64,000 nucleotides of DNA from a virus: IMG/VR virus record IMGVR_UViG_3300031963_011573, positions 1 to 64,000 of that record; one strand, written 5' to 3'. The stretch's first letter is position 1; the number at the start of each line of letters is the position of its first letter. Below are positions 3,317 through 26,183 of this stretch, one piece after another. Under the pieces are notes generated by a model. The model made no database searches. It had not been told where the DNA came from and saw nothing but the letters and a program-made list of their open reading frames with translations. The position numbers and the translations under genes were made by a program.

Positions 3317-3352
3317 TTTGGCTTTCTAAATCTTCTTTTGTATATTTAAAGT

Positions 3353-4072
3353 ATGAAATTTAAAATTACATTCATATCAGACACTCACGGAAAACACAAC
3401 CAACTAACAAAAGATCTACCAGGTGGAGACATATTAATTCATGCTGGGGATTTTATGAATGCAGGTTACTATAAAACAGAAGCAATTGAATTTTTCAATT
3501 GGTTTGATGCAATCAACAACTACGATACAAAAGTATTTATTGCAGGAAATCATGACCGTTTAATGGAAGATGATTCAACATGGGCTCAAGGTTATTTAAC
3601 AGGATTTAAAACAATAGATTATTTACAAGACGAAGAAATAGGAATATACCACGATGATTTAAATGGAGACCACTCAGAAGATAATATTCATATTTATGGT
3701 TCACCTTGGCAACCTGAATTTTTTAATTGGGCATTCAATTTACCTCGAAATGGTAATGAATTGAAAGAACGTTGGAACATAATACCCAACAACACAGACA
3801 TTTTAGTTACACATGGCCCTCCATTTGGATTCCTAGATATCCCAGGACATGGTACTCCAATGAATGTTGGTTGTGAGATGTTACGTTATCGAATAGATGA
3901 ATTGCGTCCAAAAATACATGTATTCGGGCATATTCATGGTAGTGCAGGTTACTATTTTAATGGACATACTCATTTTATAAACGCATCTGTTTTAAATGAG
4001 AGATATGTTTATGAAAATAAACCACTAACATTTGAATGGGATAATATAACAAATGAAATTCAGTGGTTATAA
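3353..4072 (+). CDS. calcineurin-like metallophosphoesterase
   Basis: SDTHG, AGD, GNHD, THGPP and GHIH motifs. Confidence 0.9.
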   Translation: MKFKITFISDTHGKHNQLTKDLPGGDILIHAGDFMNAGYYKTEAIEFFNWFDAINNYDTKVFIAGNHDRLMEDDSTWAQGYLTGFKTIDYLQDEEIGIYHDDLNGDHSEDNIHIYGSPWQPEFFNWAFNLPRNGNELKERWNIIPNNTDILVTHGPPFGFLDIPGHGTPMNVGCEMLRYRIDELRPKIHVFGHIHGSAGYYFNGHTHFINASVLNERYVYENKPLTFEWDNITNEIQWL

Positions 4073-4124
4073 GAGGAATAGGCTTTTAAAAAAAATTTTC
4101 GTATATTCAAGTAAAATAAAGGAA

Positions 4125-4349
4125 ATGGCAAAAGTAATTTTAGAATTTGATCCAATTGAAGATAGAGATGATATGGAAAACGCTATCAATGGATGGAAAT
4201 GGAAAACGTTAGTATGGGATTTAGACCAGCATTTACGATCTGAATTAAAATACAATGATGCAATTACTGGGGATGTATATGATGCTTTAGAAAAAATTAG
4301 AGAGCATTTACATGAATTAAAAAATGAAAGTGGATTAACTTTAGAATAA
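4125..4349 (+). CDS. hypothetical protein
   Basis: Start reassigned to the ATG after the promoter cassette. Confidence 0.75.
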   Translation: MAKVILEFDPIEDRDDMENAINGWKWKTLVWDLDQHLRSELKYNDAITGDVYDALEKIREHLHELKNESGLTLE

Positions 4350-4352
4350 AAC

Positions 4353-4649
4353 ATGGCAAAGAGATTAACAAGAGAAGAAAAACGAGAACAAGCAGTAGTT
4401 GATTTAATCAACGAAATGTTTCGTATTGCAGGACATGATGTTACGTTTGATGATATTTTGGACCGAGAAAATTGGTTTAATGAATATGAAATGACTGAAG
4501 AGCAATATGATGAATGGAAAGCTTGGGGTAAAAAACATTTAATGAAAAAATTGGGTCTGCATGCTGCACGAGCAGAAAAAGAGATGGCTTGGGCTGGGTT
4601 ACAATGGGGATTAAAAATAAAACAAAATGAGCAAACTGAATCAAATTAA
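4353..4649 (+). CDS. hypothetical protein
   Basis: ORF track; operon spacing. Confidence 0.75.
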   Translation: MAKRLTREEKREQAVVDLINEMFRIAGHDVTFDDILDRENWFNEYEMTEEQYDEWKAWGKKHLMKKLGLHAARAEKEMAWAGLQWGLKIKQNEQTESN

Positions 4650-4941
4650 GATACCGGTTGAAATAGAGGACTCTAGACCAACCCCAAACTATAAACTAGT
4701 AAGAGAACGTGATGGGCTAGAAAAATATTCACAGGATATTATTTGGGTAGAATGGGATGAAGCAGGATACTTTAAAGACAGACATAAAGAACTTGCTATT
4801 GGCCGATCATTGTTGATGTCTCCGTTCCATCCATTTACCTTTACTTGGCAGACAACACCAGTAACAGAAATTATAGAACAAAGAGAAGACTATATTAAAT
4901 TTAGAACAGAAAATAGCAACTACGAATTATTTAAAATATGA
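4627..4941 (+). CDS. hypothetical protein
   Basis: ORF track; coupled to neighbours. Confidence 0.75.
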   Translation: MSKLNQIKIPVEIEDSRPTPNYKLVRERDGLEKYSQDIIWVEWDEAGYFKDRHKELAIGRSLLMSPFHPFTFTWQTTPVTEIIEQREDYIKFRTENSNYELFKI

Positions 4942-5174
4942 AAATTAACCACGAGGGAAAAGGCAGACCAGCAGAGGAAAAAATACCAACAGTTGTAGTA
5001 TATAAAAAACCAACCGGGAAAAAATACTACATGTTAGTAACAGAATCTGAAGTGGATAATATCTTGAATTCTTCAAAACGTAAACCACTTATTCCTGATG
5101 GATGTGAAATAGTTGATATTGGAATAGGAAAATCATTTATTGCAACATATAAAAAACAATACGACATAAAATGA
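4938..5174 (+). CDS. hypothetical protein
   Basis: ATGA overlap. Confidence 0.7.
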   Translation: MKINHEGKGRPAEEKIPTVVVYKKPTGKKYYMLVTESEVDNILNSSKRKPLIPDGCEIVDIGIGKSFIATYKKQYDIK

Positions 5175-5425
5175 ATTTTTTAGATAATTTACCTTCTATA
5201 AGCAACAATAAAGCTAAACAAATGAGACTTGACTCGTTTGAAAGAGGATTTAGAGTAGGACAAAAAGAAGCTATTGATGCTTTAAGAGATACACAAAAAT
5301 ACAATTGCAAACATTTAAATGATTTTGAAAAAGCAATAGTAATGAAATTTTTGGATGAATATAATTTAGAGTTTGGATACAATGTTGAAGAGGGTGGATT
5401 TTATGTTTTAAAACGAGTAAAATGA
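5171..5425 (+). CDS. hypothetical protein
   Basis: Contiguous with upstream gene. Confidence 0.7.
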   Translation: MNFLDNLPSISNNKAKQMRLDSFERGFRVGQKEAIDALRDTQKYNCKHLNDFEKAIVMKFLDEYNLEFGYNVEEGGFYVLKRVK

Positions 5426-5649
5426 AAACAACAAACCGAATAGACTCGGGACATGAATTATCTATATTCCTCTATGAATTAATGGCAGCTAATATAGAAA
5501 TACCATCTAATATAACATTAGAAATTGATAGTCCCTTATTTGAATCTGAAATAAATGAAATAGCACAAAATTTCTCCCCAGAAGGAGAATCTATATCAAT
5601 GAAACGATTTGAATATATGGGAAACAAAGTAACCTTTAAATCAGAATAG
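5422..5649 (+). CDS. hypothetical protein ending in repeat-encoded TFKSE
   Basis: ATGA overlap; stop supplied by the 23-bp repeat. Confidence 0.7.
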   Translation: MKTTNRIDSGHELSIFLYELMAANIEIPSNITLEIDSPLFESEINEIAQNFSPEGESISMKRFEYMGNKVTFKSE

Positions 5650-5650
5650 A

Positions 5651-5848
5651 ATGAAAATAGAAACAAATGGAACACAAGAAATTTATAATGTTGGGGATGT
5701 TTTTATGATAGATAATCCTAATATAAATGAACCAAAAGTATTTACAACACATAAAGTAGATAATGATTGGGGTGTAGTATATTATTATCAATTAAATGGT
5801 ATTGAAGAAACAATTGGAATTAGTTATATCACAAAAATTAACCTTTAA
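5651..5848 (+). CDS. hypothetical cassette protein
   Basis: Start and stop both lie within repeats. Confidence 0.7.
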   Translation: MKIETNGTQEIYNVGDVFMIDNPNINEPKVFTTHKVDNDWGVVYYYQLNGIEETIGISYITKINL

Positions 5849-5859
5849 ATCAGAATAGA

Positions 5860-5979
5860 ATGAGAAGTGAAGATATTGAATTTTGTATTGTTTATGGAGC
5901 AATTAGTTTTTCAGGATTTTGTATAGCAATTCACTATTGGTATTACCAATTATTTAAAAAAAGAAAAAGAAACCTTTAA
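5860..5979 (+). CDS. 39-aa single-TM cassette peptide (MRSEDIEFC...KRNL)
   Basis: Read manually; start and stop lie within repeats. Confidence 0.6.
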   Translation: MRSEDIEFCIVYGAISFSGFCIAIHYWYYQLFKKRKRNL

Positions 5980-5990
5980 ATCAGAATAGA

Positions 5991-6269
5991 ATGGGTAAAA
6001 CAAGAGAAAAATTATTGAATGCAAATAGGTATTGTCATATCTACGTAGATGATGATGGAATAACTAATTATCATGATACTGAAACAAATGAGACTTATAG
6101 GGTTATACCTGACACAGGAGCATTAGGTTTTTATTTGGAGTATTTTAAAGATGGTGTATTAAAAGCAAGAAATTCATTTGAATTTAAAGAACTTAAAATA
6201 CTTGCAAATCTTACTGGGAGTAATTATTTACTAAACAATTTAATTGGTGGAGAACTTAAATCAGAATAA
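5991..6269 (+). CDS. hypothetical cassette protein ending LKSE
   Basis: Start and stop lie within repeats. Confidence 0.7.
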   Translation: MGKTREKLLNANRYCHIYVDDDGITNYHDTETNETYRVIPDTGALGFYLEYFKDGVLKARNSFEFKELKILANLTGSNYLLNNLIGGELKSE

Positions 6270-6270
6270 A

Positions 6271-6555
6271 ATGGATCAAACAGCAGTAGAATGGTTTGTT
6301 GGGCAAATGTTTTTGCAAGGTTATCTTAATGATAGCCCAATGACCATTGTTAACATTAACCATTTTGTTCGACAAGCCAAAGAAATGGAAGCTAAACAAC
6401 GACAAGAAGATACCAATCACGGCTATTCACAAGGATACGATGATGGGGCTCAAGGTAAGGAACCAATGCAACCTGAAATATCTGATTCAGAGGGACAATC
6501 ATACCAGGATAAAATGAGAGATAAAATAGCCAAAGCTAAATCAAGGTTAAAATGA
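6271..6555 (+). CDS. hypothetical protein (MDQTAVEW...)
   Basis: Start at the repeat-borne ATG. Confidence 0.7.
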   Translation: MDQTAVEWFVGQMFLQGYLNDSPMTIVNINHFVRQAKEMEAKQRQEDTNHGYSQGYDDGAQGKEPMQPEISDSEGQSYQDKMRDKIAKAKSRLK

Positions 6556-6791
6556 AACAATGGTACTACCACGGTGATAAAACGTATATCATCCATAAAA
6601 AAATAGCAATCTCAGCGTTTACAAACGCGGATGGAGTACTAAACATGGAAATGGTTAAAGATGGAAGAGACTCGTTGTTTAATGTGGATCATGTGTTAAA
6701 AACAGACAGACATTTTTTATTTGTAGAAACTATACAAGATGCAGAAATTATTGAAGAAACTCAAGGTGTGGTGGAAGAAACACATAGCTAG
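6552..6791 (+). CDS. hypothetical protein
   Basis: ORF track. Confidence 0.7.
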   Translation: MKQWYYHGDKTYIIHKKIAISAFTNADGVLNMEMVKDGRDSLFNVDHVLKTDRHFLFVETIQDAEIIEETQGVVEETHS

Positions 6792-6828
6792 TGACTGTCC
6801 AAAATATTTAGATGATTTATTTTAAAAT

Positions 6829-7338
6829 ATGAAAGATAAAATTTTAGATTGGTGGCACTCCACCGGAATCAGACAAGTGATCCGAAATACTATAAAGGGA
6901 ATTGAAAATGTAATTTATTGGTTTCCTGTTATTTGGAAGGATAGGGATTGGGATCATTACTATATTTATGAAATTTTAAAAACTAAACTAGAAAAACAAG
7001 CAACAAACATTTATAACAGTGGAAACCATGTTGATTCAAAATATGATGCTGAAAGAATGTTTTTATGTGCTCGTTTAATTCAACTCCAACAAGAAGAATT
7101 ATATGAATATGAGTGGGCTGATCCAATATATGATGAAAATTTAGAGGAATACTTTAAAAAATACCCAAGACAATATAAAAGAGCCATATCAGGTGAATTT
7201 GATAGACCAGGACTTGAACCACTTGATGAAAATAACAAAGATTTAATTGCAATGGAAATTGCTTTGGAAAATCAAAAACGTTCACGTAAATTGCTATTTA
7301 AAATACTAGACCAGAATATTACCAGGTGGTGGGATTGA
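6829..7338 (+). CDS. conserved phage hypothetical protein (IWKDRDWD...RWWD)
   Basis: Recognisable phage family motifs; function unknown. Confidence 0.75.
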   Translation: MKDKILDWWHSTGIRQVIRNTIKGIENVIYWFPVIWKDRDWDHYYIYEILKTKLEKQATNIYNSGNHVDSKYDAERMFLCARLIQLQQEELYEYEWADPIYDENLEEYFKKYPRQYKRAISGEFDRPGLEPLDENNKDLIAMEIALENQKRSRKLLFKILDQNITRWWD

Positions 7339-7410
7339 TGTAAAATATATTTCATTAAAGGAATAGGGAGCGCGAGCTCCCTTTCGTATATTCCCCTCAA
7401 ATTAAAGGAA

Positions 7411-7620
7411 ATGAAAGTTTTATTAAATAAAAAACAAAGAGAACCTAAACCAAAACAATTTATAATATTAAATGAATTTTGTCAGGTGTTTTGTGGTTTA
7501 CAAGGTGGTTACCCTGCTTTCAGTGATAATATAGATGAAGCAAAACCACTTGAAAACGATGCTCAAATTAGAATGATTCAACAAGGGACTTCATTTAAAC
7601 TAGAGAAGGAATATTTATGA
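7411..7620 (+). CDS. hypothetical protein
   Basis: Follows a promoter cassette. Confidence 0.7.
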   Translation: MKVLLNKKQREPKPKQFIILNEFCQVFCGLQGGYPAFSDNIDEAKPLENDAQIRMIQQGTSFKLEKEYL

Positions 7621-7796
7621 TCATGGAAGGTGAAATCTTAGATGACTTGATGCTTGCTCACCATGTCTTGGAAGAAGCAGCTCAATATGATTTAGAATCT
7701 GAAGTGTTTGTATGGTCACTTAAAGCAATGAAGGAAGATCCTTCATTAACAATCGATGAAGCTATTTTAAAAGGAAAAAAAGAGTGGTTGAAGTAA
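7617..7796 (+). CDS. hypothetical protein (59 aa)
   Basis: Read manually; ATGA overlap. Confidence 0.65.
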   Translation: MIMEGEILDDLMLAHHVLEEAAQYDLESEVFVWSLKAMKEDPSLTIDEAILKGKKEWLK

Positions 7797-7849
7797 GGGA
7801 ATAGTTTTTATAAAAAATATTTCGTATATTAAAGTATAAAATAAAGGTT

Positions 7850-8077
7850 ATGTGGAATAAGATAGTTAGTATATTTAGGTTTTTAGAAGGTGTTGTTTTA
7901 TTTTATTTAGCATTTGTTTTTATAAAATGGTATGTAAAAGGACATTTTGGTAAGTATTTTATATTCTTTTGGTTGAATACTATAATTGCTTTTGTAATGT
8001 ATTTTAATCATCAACAACAAATAGAAGAAGAATATGATAATAGAACAGGTGCAGAAATATGGGAAGCAACACATTAA
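7850..8077 (+). CDS. two-TM membrane protein
   Basis: Hydrophobic segments; own cassette. Confidence 0.7.
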   Translation: MWNKIVSIFRFLEGVVLFYLAFVFIKWYVKGHFGKYFIFFWLNTIIAFVMYFNHQQQIEEEYDNRTGAEIWEATH

Positions 8078-8146
8078 TCTAAAAGAGGAATAGTTTAAGT
8101 AAAAAAAAGTTTGTATATTAAAGTATAAATTAAAAAAATAAAAGTT

Positions 8147-8956
8147 ATGAATATTGAAAGAAGAGAAATGAAACAAGAAAGAAGAGGACGCCCTTCAAAA
8201 CAACCAGAACAAGTTATATTAGATCCGTCTAAAATTTCATTAGTTAGAGGTAATGAATTACATTTTAATGAATCATTATTTACACCAATGAAAACTAACA
8301 CTGAGTTAGATGTTATATTTTCAACTGAAGGTGGATTGATGCCTGGAGTGTCAATGATGATAGCTGGAGGCCCCGGTTCAGGTAAATCTACATTAGTTTT
8401 GGATACATTAGCTAGACTTACTCAACAAGGTTATAAATGTTTATTAATACAAGGAGAAATGGACCAAATAGGACATTATAAGTATTGTAAACGGATTCCT
8501 CAGTTTGGGTGTATTCAAACATTGTTTCTAAAAGAATATATTGATAATGTAAAAGAAGTAATTGAGTATGTTTTTAATCTAGGATATGATGTTATAGGAA
8601 TCGACTCAATTGCTGAAGTACTAGATATGTACAGAAATCAAAATGGAGGAACAGCTAAACAAGCTGAAACATGGTTCTTGAAACTTCAAGATGAGACTAA
8701 GAAAGGAAAGAATGAGAAAGGATATTATACATCTTTTATCAACATACAACAATTTACTAAGAGTGATGAGTTTGCTGGGAGTAACAGATTGAAACATATG
8801 ATGGAAGCCTATGCTGAAGTAAATAGAAGTAAAGATGGGTTAGAAAGATCAATTTTCTTTAGTAAGAATAGAGATTGTGATAAGGATTTTAAAATATATT
8901 TTTCAATTTATAATGATGGAGTTTATTTCTCCTATGAATTAGAAAAAGAAGATTAA
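8147..8956 (+). CDS. RadA/Sms-like RecA-family ATPase with N-terminal AT-hook-like RRGRP
   Basis: Walker A GGPGSGKST; Walker B IGIDSI; FAGSNRLKHM and KNR resemble RadA motifs; no Zn finger or Lon domain. Confidence 0.75.
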   Translation: MNIERREMKQERRGRPSKQPEQVILDPSKISLVRGNELHFNESLFTPMKTNTELDVIFSTEGGLMPGVSMMIAGGPGSGKSTLVLDTLARLTQQGYKCLLIQGEMDQIGHYKYCKRIPQFGCIQTLFLKEYIDNVKEVIEYVFNLGYDVIGIDSIAEVLDMYRNQNGGTAKQAETWFLKLQDETKKGKNEKGYYTSFINIQQFTKSDEFAGSNRLKHMMEAYAEVNRSKDGLERSIFFSKNRDCDKDFKIYFSIYNDGVYFSYELEKED

Positions 8957-9905: not shown

Positions 9906-9970
9906 AAAATATACAAAGGAAGAGCTCTTTCGAGAGCTCTTTCGTATATTAAAATATTAAAATAAAGGTT

Positions 9971-11839: not shown

Positions 11840-11948
11840 AGTCAGGTGGCGGAATTGGTTAGACGCTATCTAGAAGATTATATGAAAGGGTGATATAAGA
11901 ATGAAATGAATAAACCCACTTACAGGTTCGAATCCTGTCCTGACTACA
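11840..11948 (+). ncRNA. tRNA-like element 1 (Leu-type acceptor, D and T arms; no canonical anticodon arm)
   Basis: Acceptor AGTCAGG/CCTGACT; D arm GCG-GAATTGGTTAGA-CGC; T arm ACAGG-TTCGAAT-CCTGT; central ~50 nt non-canonical. Confidence 0.8.
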
Positions 11949-13978: not shown

Positions 13979-14287
13979 ATGGGAGAAGACGTAATTTCAA
14001 TATTGGTTAAACGATTAAGACGTTGTGGTATCGAAATAGAATTAAGTGGAAATTATCCATGGATCTACTTAGATAAAGTAAATGGTAATCGCATTAAACA
14101 AGAAGATTTTACATCAAATCATGGTTTCAACATTGCTTGGTTTGGAATTAAAAATGATGATAAAATAAAATTTGCTGAGGAACCTAAAGTAATTATTGCT
14201 TTAATTCGAAAATATGTTAGGGAATCAAAATTGATTCAAATGATAAAAGACGATGAAGAAGCAGGATTATATCAAAAACCAGAATAG
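13979..14287 (+). CDS. hypothetical protein (GNYPWIYL motif)
   Basis: ORF track. Confidence 0.75.
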   Translation: MGEDVISILVKRLRRCGIEIELSGNYPWIYLDKVNGNRIKQEDFTSNHGFNIAWFGIKNDDKIKFAEEPKVIIALIRKYVRESKLIQMIKDDEEAGLYQKPE

Positions 14288-14288
14288 A

Positions 14289-14528
14289 ATGACACCAAAA
14301 GAAAAAGCAGAAGAGCTAGTTGAAATGTTTATGAACATAAGAAAACAGAAGTTAGCAGACTATTCTATAATTTATCATCCAACATCTAAACAATGTGCTT
14401 TAATTGCAGTAAATGAAATACTACTAACACTAAACAAAGATATCAGAGATTTAGATGTGGTAGGTAATGTATTGTTGGATTTAATTGACTATTGGAATGA
14501 AGTTAAACAAGAAATAGAACAACTATGA
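14289..14528 (+). CDS. hypothetical protein (MTPKEKAEEL family)
   Basis: Start within a CCAGAATAGAATG junction variant. Confidence 0.75.
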   Translation: MTPKEKAEELVEMFMNIRKQKLADYSIIYHPTSKQCALIAVNEILLTLNKDIRDLDVVGNVLLDLIDYWNEVKQEIEQL

Positions 14529-25844: not shown

Positions 25845-26183
25845 ATGGAAAGAAATGAATTAGTTAAAAAAGCTTTAGAAGCAGGGATTACAAAAGCAAA
25901 TACTATGAAGAGTGTAGTATTGGAAGAAATGTTAAAAGAATTAGAAGTTAAGAAAACAGGTAAGAGAGGAAGACCAATTAATGAAGACAGTGTTAGACAA
26001 AAAAGAATTAAAGAATTAGAGAATAAAAGAATAAATGGAGAATTGAAAAAAGGACGACCAGTAAATGAAAATAGTGTTAGACAGATGAGGTTAAAAGAGA
26101 TGGAGTTAAAGAGAATGAATGGAGAGTTGAGAAGAGGAAGACCAAAAATGAATAAAACGGATAATAATGAGGTAGCCGCTTAG
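25845..26183 (+). CDS. AT-hook-repeat DNA-binding protein
   Basis: KRGRP, KKGRP and RRGRP with a duplicated NE.SVRQ.R.KE.E.KR.NGEL unit. Confidence 0.7.
   Translation: MERNELVKKALEAGITKANTMKSVVLEEMLKELEVKKTGKRGRPINEDSVRQKRIKELENKRINGELKKGRPVNENSVRQMRLKEMELKRMNGELRRGRPKMNKTDNNEVAA

Follow-up and report, generated by a model that had tools for sequence, protein, structure and literature searches.

A short stop-start linker as a probable exchange joint for single-gene phage cassettes

The window considered here is a stretch of 64,000 nucleotides of viral DNA, corresponding to positions 1 to 64,000 of the IMG/VR record IMGVR_UViG_3300031963_011573. The window phage, whose genes include those for a baseplate wedge protein and a DNA ligase, is a large myovirus. 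Towards the left end of the window, five small genes follow one another on the + strand and are joined by a direct repeat of 23 bases, AACCTTTAAATCAGAATAGAATG, which is called the linker below. A single gene lying between two linkers is referred to as a cassette, and a run of cassettes as an array. The parts of the window's array, together with a partial linker further downstream, are as follows (aa, amino acids):

5422–5649, + strand: gene before the array, 75 aa (ending ..VTFKSE), no family match
5631–5653, + strand: linker copy 1, full 23-mer; its TAG stops 5422–5649, its ATG starts 5651–5848, and the preceding T gives a TAA in the third frame
5651–5848, + strand: cassette 1, 65 aa, which recurs in five metagenome contigs
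5840–5862, + strand: linker copy 2, full 23-mer; the TAA of AAC-CTT-TAA stops 5651–5848 and the ATG starts 5860–5979
5860–5979, + strand: cassette 2, 39 aa, with a hydrophobic core and a basic tail
5971–5993, + strand: linker copy 3, full 23-mer; the TAA stops 5860–5979, the ATG starts 5991–6269, and the third frame is open
5991–6269, + strand: cassette 3, 92 aa, known in five contexts including the window's
6256–6273, + strand: linker copy 4, left-truncated to 18 bases, with TAA for TAG; stops 5991–6269 (..GGELKSE) and starts 6271–6555
6271–6555, + strand: gene after the array, 94 aa (MDQTAVEWF..QAKEME..), a divergent member of family 0, which is described below
14280–14291, + strand: 3' half-linker, before the reading frame 14289–14528, a member of "family 1" (MTPKEKA..)

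As an earlier note on this DNA had reported, the full 23-mer occurs exactly three times, at 5631–5653, 5840–5862 and 5971–5993, on the + strand. The number expected by chance is zero: with up to three mismatches allowed, none of 100 dinucleotide-preserving shuffles contained a match. The rest of the 106-kilobase (kb) virus record was scanned and held no further copy of the 23-mer. The variants that the note had placed at 6253 and about 14277 both exist, as shortened forms. The site at 6256–6273 (TTAAATCAGAATAAAATG) represents the last 18 bases of the 23-mer with TAG changed to TAA, the first five bases being AGAAC instead of AACCT. The site at 14280–14291 (CAGAATAGAATG) contains the last 12 bases only, and this 12-base match is by itself near chance (7 matches at up to three mismatches versus 1.4 expected). 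The open reading frame (ORF) behind it, 14289–14528, belongs to a family whose other members follow a full linker.

Spacers of 108, 186 and 262 bases separate the copies, with one ORF in each. The ORFs of the three intervals (65, 39 and 92 aa), as well as those before and after the array (75 and 94 aa), are mutually dissimilar, no pair reaching E < 0.2 in a blastp comparison of the window's ORFs. The claim that each interval holds one unrelated ORF of 39–92 aa was thus borne out. Homologous units between the repeats, which would mark tandem gene duplication, were not found in the array, so that the spacers are not diverged duplicates of one another. The five small array ORFs were also compared with Pfam and PHROGs and had no match in either.

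The linker is widespread outside the window. A search of related phages, which the earlier note had proposed, found its 18-base core, exact, in at least 119 other viral contigs of IMG/VR, often in two to four copies that lie 130–400 bases apart. The comparison contigs were chosen for this exact core, all are metagenome assemblies, and their loci are numbered with an L below. In 988 kb of core-bearing loci there are 115 exact 23-mers and 90 with one to three mismatches; the reversed motif, used as a control on the same 988 kb, gave no match at up to five mismatches. Whole records hold one to nine linker copies in small local arrays on one strand. Every copy lies on the coding strand and is fused to an ATG, and the genes downstream of it represent dozens of families. 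The carriers comprise complete genomes of 32–33 kb, two of which have terminal repeats, as well as genomes of 113–160 kb and of 224 kb. Akin to the window phage, by way of a backbone gene at 6829–7338 (28–61% aa identity), are 44 loci: one has a linker and the remaining 43 have none within 6 kb.

The cassette content of these phages is not invariant, a point on which the note had suggested a comparison. All three cassettes of the window are found in other contigs at 93–99% DNA identity from linker to linker, beside different neighbours. The DNA of cassette 1 is 94–96% identical over 5630–5866 in five metagenome contigs (5624–5866 in L288); here, the upstream neighbour is a tRNA-like element or a family-0 gene, and the downstream neighbour is one of four different genes. 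Cassette 2, whose product, from its hydrophobic core and basic tail, is probably a membrane mini-protein, is 93–96% identical in DNA in L021, L092 and L124, and its protein is encoded at 87% aa identity in L042 and L065. It always lies between two linkers and occurs in five neighbour combinations, including the window's own. Cassette 3 is 94–99% identical in DNA in L181–L184, where the similarity stops at the linkers, except in L183, which shares the next gene as well. In addition, L185–L189 encode the same 95%-identical cassette 3 protein in the context of L184.

More distant relatives of these genes are free of the linker. Those of cassette 1, at 60–69% aa identity, have no linker and different ends, and distant relatives of cassette 3 (74% aa identity) likewise lack it and end in GGEKTV, GGEQNEK or GGEQTKN. 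The linker system therefore appears to have captured the 92-aa and 65-aa genes. As the sequence is read here, one such graft, of a linker tail onto the 92-aa gene, left the truncated copy at 6256 as its scar.

Several neighbours of the linker recur as well. The 98-aa gene at 4053–4349 has relatives at 28–78% aa identity in more than 20 linker loci, and these stand directly behind the linker in L016, L026, L051, L057 and L106. A 107-base element at 11840–11946 contains a large insert; ARAGORN does not call it, but the Rfam tRNA model matches it from end to end at 35.5 bits, which exceeds the cut-off. Homologues of this element flank relatives of the 65-aa gene in L289–L296, and in L289–L292 the linker starts right after the element's 3' end. 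Two guesses were not retained: a tRNA behind the linker in L065, which ARAGORN did not confirm, and a YqaJ-type exonuclease as the identity of a 223–234 aa gene that is often found behind the linker, which had no Pfam support.

In principle, the alternative contexts of the cassettes could be chimeras made by metagenome assembly at a repeated sequence, as every comparison sequence is a metagenome contig and shared cassettes of 110–280 bases could tangle assembly graphs. This explanation is almost certainly wrong. A 23-base repeat is shorter than sequencing reads and than the usual final k-mers, and branching of a graph at the ends of a cassette itself requires reads in which the cassette is connected to more than one neighbour. 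Several contexts were found again in independent samples (L184–L189, L042/L124, L290/L291), and complete genomes with terminal repeats carry arrays.

The position at which similarity between phages ends was determined from pairs of linker copies that come from different contigs and share at least 85% identity in one 60-base flank. There are 34 pairs that share the upstream flank only, 62 that share the downstream flank only and 8 that share both. The sequences begin to diverge at the linker's two edges, either at +3 to +9 or at −17 to −25. As a control, every tight gene junction of the same 213 loci was considered: homology crosses the junction in 5 of 69 linker pairs versus 541 of 979 pairs at tight junctions that lack a linker (Fisher p = 4e-16). 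These loci contain 172 cassettes flanked by two linkers, which fall into 141 families. Nineteen families are present in at least two loci, and in 9 of the 19 the neighbours differ both upstream and downstream.

A second allele of the junction, TAAACAACAAGAA[AC]AATG, is read as ..TFKQQEQ and has an ATGA overlap (L193–L286, for example L234:3904–4956). It is represented by 112 copies in 42 loci and, like the first linker, stands before genes that are unrelated to one another; the two alleles are intermixed in seven loci. Homology extends across the junction in 3 of 28 pairs of this allele. Exchange is seen inside a gene, too, as family 0 is mosaic at an internal conserved QAKEMEKEQ block: 17 pairs have one half in common and are unrelated in the other, and no pair has both halves in common. 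Because exchange also takes place at the family-0 block and at the second allele, it appears to reflect general homologous recombination at any short shared sequence, and general rather than site-specific recombination best explains it.

The earlier note had pictured an integron-like array for the capture or shuffling of genes. The shuffling of single-gene cassettes, with breakpoints at the edges of the repeat, agrees with the results above, and the integron-like label does not. A dedicated recombinase or nuclease that recognises the 23-mer and excises and inserts cassettes would account for a constant site on either side of apparently promoterless cassettes that all point the same way, and for breakpoints that are tightly confined to the linker. 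In addition, the palindrome TTTAAA lies in the most conserved part of the linker and is common to both alleles. Such a system is nonetheless very unlikely to operate here. No tyrosine or serine recombinase (Phage_integrase PF00589, Resolvase PF00239) is encoded in the 106-kb record, which is approximately 63% complete; the note had remarked that none is visible nearby. Five linker-bearing genomes that are 99–100% complete have no match to PF00589 or PF00239 either. The linker contains no attC-type hairpin and no inverted repeat besides TTTAAA; exchange is also seen at the unrelated family-0 block and at the second allele; and the truncated and half linkers at 6256 and 14280 resemble homology-guided or illegitimate joins, not precise cuts.

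A broader form of this idea makes the linker the recognition site of some dedicated machinery, either a nuclease or recombinase that cuts at or near TTTAAA or an RNA-binding regulator, with the family-0 protein as one candidate. This is improbable. If it were true, it would constitute an integrase-free gene-cassette system that moves single genes between phages of unrelated architecture.

Proteins that could promote general recombination are present in the carriers. An annealing protein of the ERF family is encoded in all three complete 32–33 kb genomes, within approximately 1 kb of the array in two of them, and ERF or RecT is also found in other linker loci. In the window, the relevant feature is:

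8147–8956, + strand: stand-alone RecA-fold ATPase, 269 aa, nearest to RadA/Sms and RecA cores, far below family cut-offs

This protein had been put forward as a candidate recombinase under the name of a RadA-like ATPase. The RecA fold and the proximity to RadA/Sms stand, and nothing ties the protein to the repeat. It is possibly a general recombination protein without a particular connection to the linker.

The frames in which the linker is read show how it ends the genes upstream of it. In the window, the ORF at 5422–5649 ends ..VTFKSE at the linker's TAG, those at 5651–5848 and 5860–5979 end ..NL and are stopped by the TAA of AAC-CTT-TAA, and the one at 5991–6269 ends ..ELKSE at the TAA of the truncated copy. 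Thus, stops in two frames are both used, as the note had stated. It had also stated that the third frame reads through into the ATG, and this holds for copy 3 (GAAACC), the sole copy with that frame open; in copies 1 and 2 a preceding T (TAACC) closes the third frame as well. The distance from stop to ATG is 1, 11 or 18 bases, depending on the frame, a spacing that would suit termination followed by reinitiation.

A census of 160 linker copies with a recognisable upstream gene extends this to the other loci. In 112 of them the upstream gene reads ..FKSE and stops at TAG or TAA (frame B), in 25 it stops at the TAA of AAC-CTT-TAA (frame A), in 11 it stops at the TAA of TAACC (frame C), and in the remaining 12 it stops further upstream, leaving the linker untranslated. 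With stops in all frames across these copies, the part of the proposal by which the repeat ends upstream genes whatever their frame and provides the next ATG is supported.

As 70% of the copies with an identifiable upstream gene (112/160) read ..FKSE and a stop, the repeat might be nothing other than a conserved protein end (..TFKSE), or the ORFs might be diverged tandem duplicates. Favouring this, 92 upstream genes belong to one family that ends EQYYNETFKSE, and the 75-aa gene of the window has a relative in L287, 57% identical and beside an ERF gene, that ends ..ITFKNTENENR and so has ..TFK.. near its end too. The reading is largely refuted by frame usage and is extremely unlikely: in 48 of the 160 copies the linker is either translated in a different frame or left untranslated. 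In addition, the window's cassettes share no similarity, the upstream genes that carry the linker come from dozens of unrelated families, and TTT, AAA and TCA are hardly ever replaced by synonymous codons among 65 non-selected variants. A frameshift or fusion at the heptamer TTTAAAT was considered as well and dropped, as one configuration only (L114, L043) has a long open third frame.

Conservation of the linker is therefore best described at the level of nucleic acid. Copies differ mostly in the last base of the stop codon and in its 3' neighbour, and a stop (TAA or TAG) is always kept. The five bases beyond the searched core are AACCT in 133 copies. Where the upstream gene is not of family 0, information content sets in abruptly at −20/−21 from the ATG, so that the linker behaves as a leader of the downstream ATG. 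Where the upstream gene is of family 0, conservation extends to about −38. Probably, the linker originated at the 3' end of the abundant family-0 genes (..EQYYNETFKSE and stop), was joined to the next start, and then spread. In L092, which belongs to a complete 33-kb genome, a poly-A run of the 39-aa gene is longer by one A; this shifts the frame, and the protein ends ..ETFKSE at the alternative stop that the linker provides.

Family 0 is the commonest neighbour of the linker and comprises proteins of 58–90 aa with the pattern MKTAVEWL..QAKEMEKEQ..EQYYNETFKSE. Its structure was modeled as a confident three-helix bundle, with a predicted local distance difference test score (pLDDT) of 90.5. The model had no fold match in the PDB and the family no PHROG relative; Pfam searches with 43 members gave isolated, chance-level matches only, and a protein atlas search gave unnamed viral clusters only. 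The proteins of this large viral family (L006–L124; window 6271–6555) consist of three conserved blocks that enclose two variable halves, and these halves occur in different combinations from phage to phage.

Transcription of the array was considered from the promoter-like repeats of the window, the last of which before the array is:

4098–4107, + strand: core of a promoter-like repeat, TTCGTATATT, last copy before the array; the next copy is at 7383–7392

All array ORFs are on the + strand and there is no promoter-like repeat between 4098 and 7383, the promoter role being assigned from the repeat itself. The array thus lies within one putative transcription unit, and the cassettes have no such promoter-like signal of their own. 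The core, TTYGTATATT, has 28 copies on the + strand at 3337–26623 (for example 4098, 7383, 7821, 8110 and 9941) and 32 on both strands, against 1.5 expected. The copies sit in repeats of 60–80 bases; a G+C hairpin often precedes them (such as GAGCTCTTTCGAGAGCTC near 9921), and AAAGGTTATG follows. These repeats look like phage promoter-plus-terminator units.

Flavobacterium ribosomes ignore the Shine-Dalgarno sequence, and low structure together with A at −3, −6, −12 and −13 favours initiation (PMC6847099). Both linker alleles have A at all four positions and contain no other AUG. The linker is predicted to be unstructured, with a mean unpaired probability of 0.60 versus 0.56 in the flanks and no pairing in or around it. 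It contains no Shine-Dalgarno core (GGAG), and its longest Watson-Crick match to Flavobacterium 16S rRNA is 8 bases at an internal site, a length that 16% of shuffled motifs reach.

Accordingly, the linker might be kept for expression only, as an optimal start region that works without a Shine-Dalgarno sequence, a signal for termination and reinitiation, or a site bound by a RegA-like translational regulator of phage or host origin, with shuffling as a passive side effect. The conserved block from −20 to +3 covers approximately the 5' half of a ribosome footprint, the four A's are common to both alleles, and the linker is retained even where it is untranslated. Further support comes from the location of the array within one putative transcription unit, and from a linker copy at a stop/start junction of a chromosomal operon that persists across a frame change in three Flavobacterium species. 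The junction is that of Flavobacterium limi, F. pectinovorum and F. calami (L172, L177 and L178), whose chromosomes each have one exact linker between two paralogous genes; the frame in which the upstream gene ends varies by species and the linker is intact. As read from the translations, these paralogues have two predicted membrane-spanning segments and lie upstream of an apparent LytTR-type response regulator.

An explanation by expression only is, however, unlikely on the whole. Twenty invariant bases are not needed for such a start, as 15% of ordinary starts in these loci obey the same A rule with unrelated sequences, and most genes of the operon at 4053–7338 are joined by ATGA overlaps or other junctions. 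Complementarity to 16S rRNA is not above chance. Finally, the identity of the linker across 32-kb and >100-kb phages and the 93–99% identity of the cassettes indicate recent exchange and not convergence.

The hosts of the carriers were approached from bacterial sequences. The exact 23-mer is present on contigs of metagenome-assembled genomes from Flavobacterium, Flavobacteriales, Chitinophagaceae and other Bacteroidota, with a few in bins of other phyla, and once per chromosome in the three cultured Flavobacterium species named above. The window phage has weak DNA similarity to the Flavobacterium phage 'immuto'. Together, these matches point to Flavobacterium or its relatives as hosts. The reading of the linker as a general signal of the host was rejected, as each of these cultured genomes has one exact copy and other matches are at control level. 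A literature search found no paper with the motif or the family-0 signatures. Two other features of the window stand apart from the array: five clustered tRNA genes (Thr, Asp, Leu, Ser, Ala) at 523–1713, and two tandem 84-base units with 74% identity, apparently coding, at 25962–26129 (repeat family D20).

The linker is thus probably a conserved boundary between stop and start that closes the reading frames, offers an A-rich start, and serves as a crossover point for the homologous exchange of apparently promoterless cassettes. It would lie, as 20 bases and an ATG, between single-gene cassettes in the early regions of freshwater Flavobacterium phages, and two roles are proposed for it. The first is in expression. 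Here, an upstream gene in any frame would meet TAA or TAG within or just before the linker, and the next ATG would follow 1 to 18 bases on, in an unstructured, A-rich context; any gene placed between two linkers would be terminated and the next one translated. The second role is in exchange, for which the comparative pattern is described above. Since many phages that occur together have many different genes bordered by this one 23-base sequence, homologous recombination is possible inside the linker, where it would swap, insert or delete whole cassettes and leave the neighbours undamaged. Phage ERF or RecT annealing proteins, RecA-like proteins or the host RecA may catalyze these events. The three-cassette array of the window would have been built by linker exchange from a pool common to phages of quite different size.

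A number of observations weigh against this proposal. At ordinary tight junctions, 45% of pairs likewise break at the gene boundary, so that boundary mosaicism is general in these phages and the linker is a hot spot, not the sole site of exchange. The four A's are likewise present at 15% of ordinary ORF starts in these loci, so that the fit of the linker to the Flavobacterium start context is compatible with the first role and not diagnostic of it, and counts as weak evidence. Conservation within the core is partly built in by the way the contigs were selected. Metagenome assemblers could also fuse phages through a shared cassette, which would inflate the number of contexts. Among the 44 loci with the backbone gene there is no close strain of the window phage from which the order of gains and losses in this array could be derived. 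The cultured phages searched do not carry the linker, and the only match to them was the start of family 0, in the Flavobacterium 'elemo' phages.

The closest known parallel may be the promoter early stem-loops (PeSLs) of T4-type phages, which combine a sigma-70-type promoter, a terminator hairpin and a Shine-Dalgarno sequence and act as repeated exchange points (Arbiol et al. 2010, PMC2839356; Comeau et al. 2014, PMC4122927). Both elements are short repeats between small genes of unknown function in plastic early regions, both take in the upstream stop and the downstream start, and both coincide with joints of insertion, deletion or replacement between phages in variable regions. However, the linker, with its 20 bases and ATG, has no room for −35 and −10 hexamers and contains no promoter, hairpin or Shine-Dalgarno sequence; any action that it has would therefore be on translation. 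The linker is also common, letter for letter, to phages of very different genome size, and mini-circles have been shown for the PeSLs. The best reading by analogy is that the linker would be a translational counterpart of the T4 PeSLs rather than an integron. Nearer to the PeSLs themselves, in this comparison, are the TTYGTATATT repeats of the window.

The concept is the same as that of the boundary sequences of the modular theory, in which homologous recombination at short conserved sequences between genes of lambdoid phages gives mosaic genomes (PMC3029335). At most mosaic joints of lambdoid phages and mycobacteriophages no boundary sequence can be found (PMC3029335), whereas here one 23-mer stands at hundreds of joints and an excess of breakpoints is measurable. 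The start-associated sequences (SAS) of Cluster K mycobacteriophages (Pope et al. 2011, PMC3203893) are also asymmetric, lie a few bases before starts in one orientation and serve many non-structural families. Like the linker, they in some cases take in the stop of the preceding gene, are seldom or never found in the host genome, and are suspected of helping translation to start. They are 13 bases long with a Shine-Dalgarno core, AGGAG, are confined to one phage cluster and have not been described as recombination joints (PMC3203893); the linker, in contrast, has no Shine-Dalgarno sequence, runs directly into the ATG, ends reading in every frame and lies at points of exchange.

Integron arrays, with attC and IntI, share with linker arrays single-gene cassettes in one orientation, a recurring site and a large shared pool; the cassettes of the window may also resemble those of integrons in being promoterless and read from a putative upstream promoter. 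Unlike integrons, the linker system has no integrase, no attI and no attC hairpin, and its site is 23 bases long and partly coding. The array also differs from a CRISPR array, as its spacers vary in length and each holds one ORF; no Rfam family, CRISPR repeats included, matches positions 4000–8200.

Whether the mosaicism of phages is guided by linkers, or arises at random and is then selected, has been debated since the modular theory was proposed. The linker offers a concrete and testable system for linker-guided gene flow, in which the host genus is culturable and genetically tractable. Here, single genes pass nearly unchanged between 33-kb and >100-kb phages of an abundant group of lake phages. 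The 141 cassette families amount to a catalogue of mobile early genes, which may include functions in host takeover or counter-defence. In addition, the linker suggests a natural 'plug-and-play' junction for stacked gene expression in Bacteroidota.

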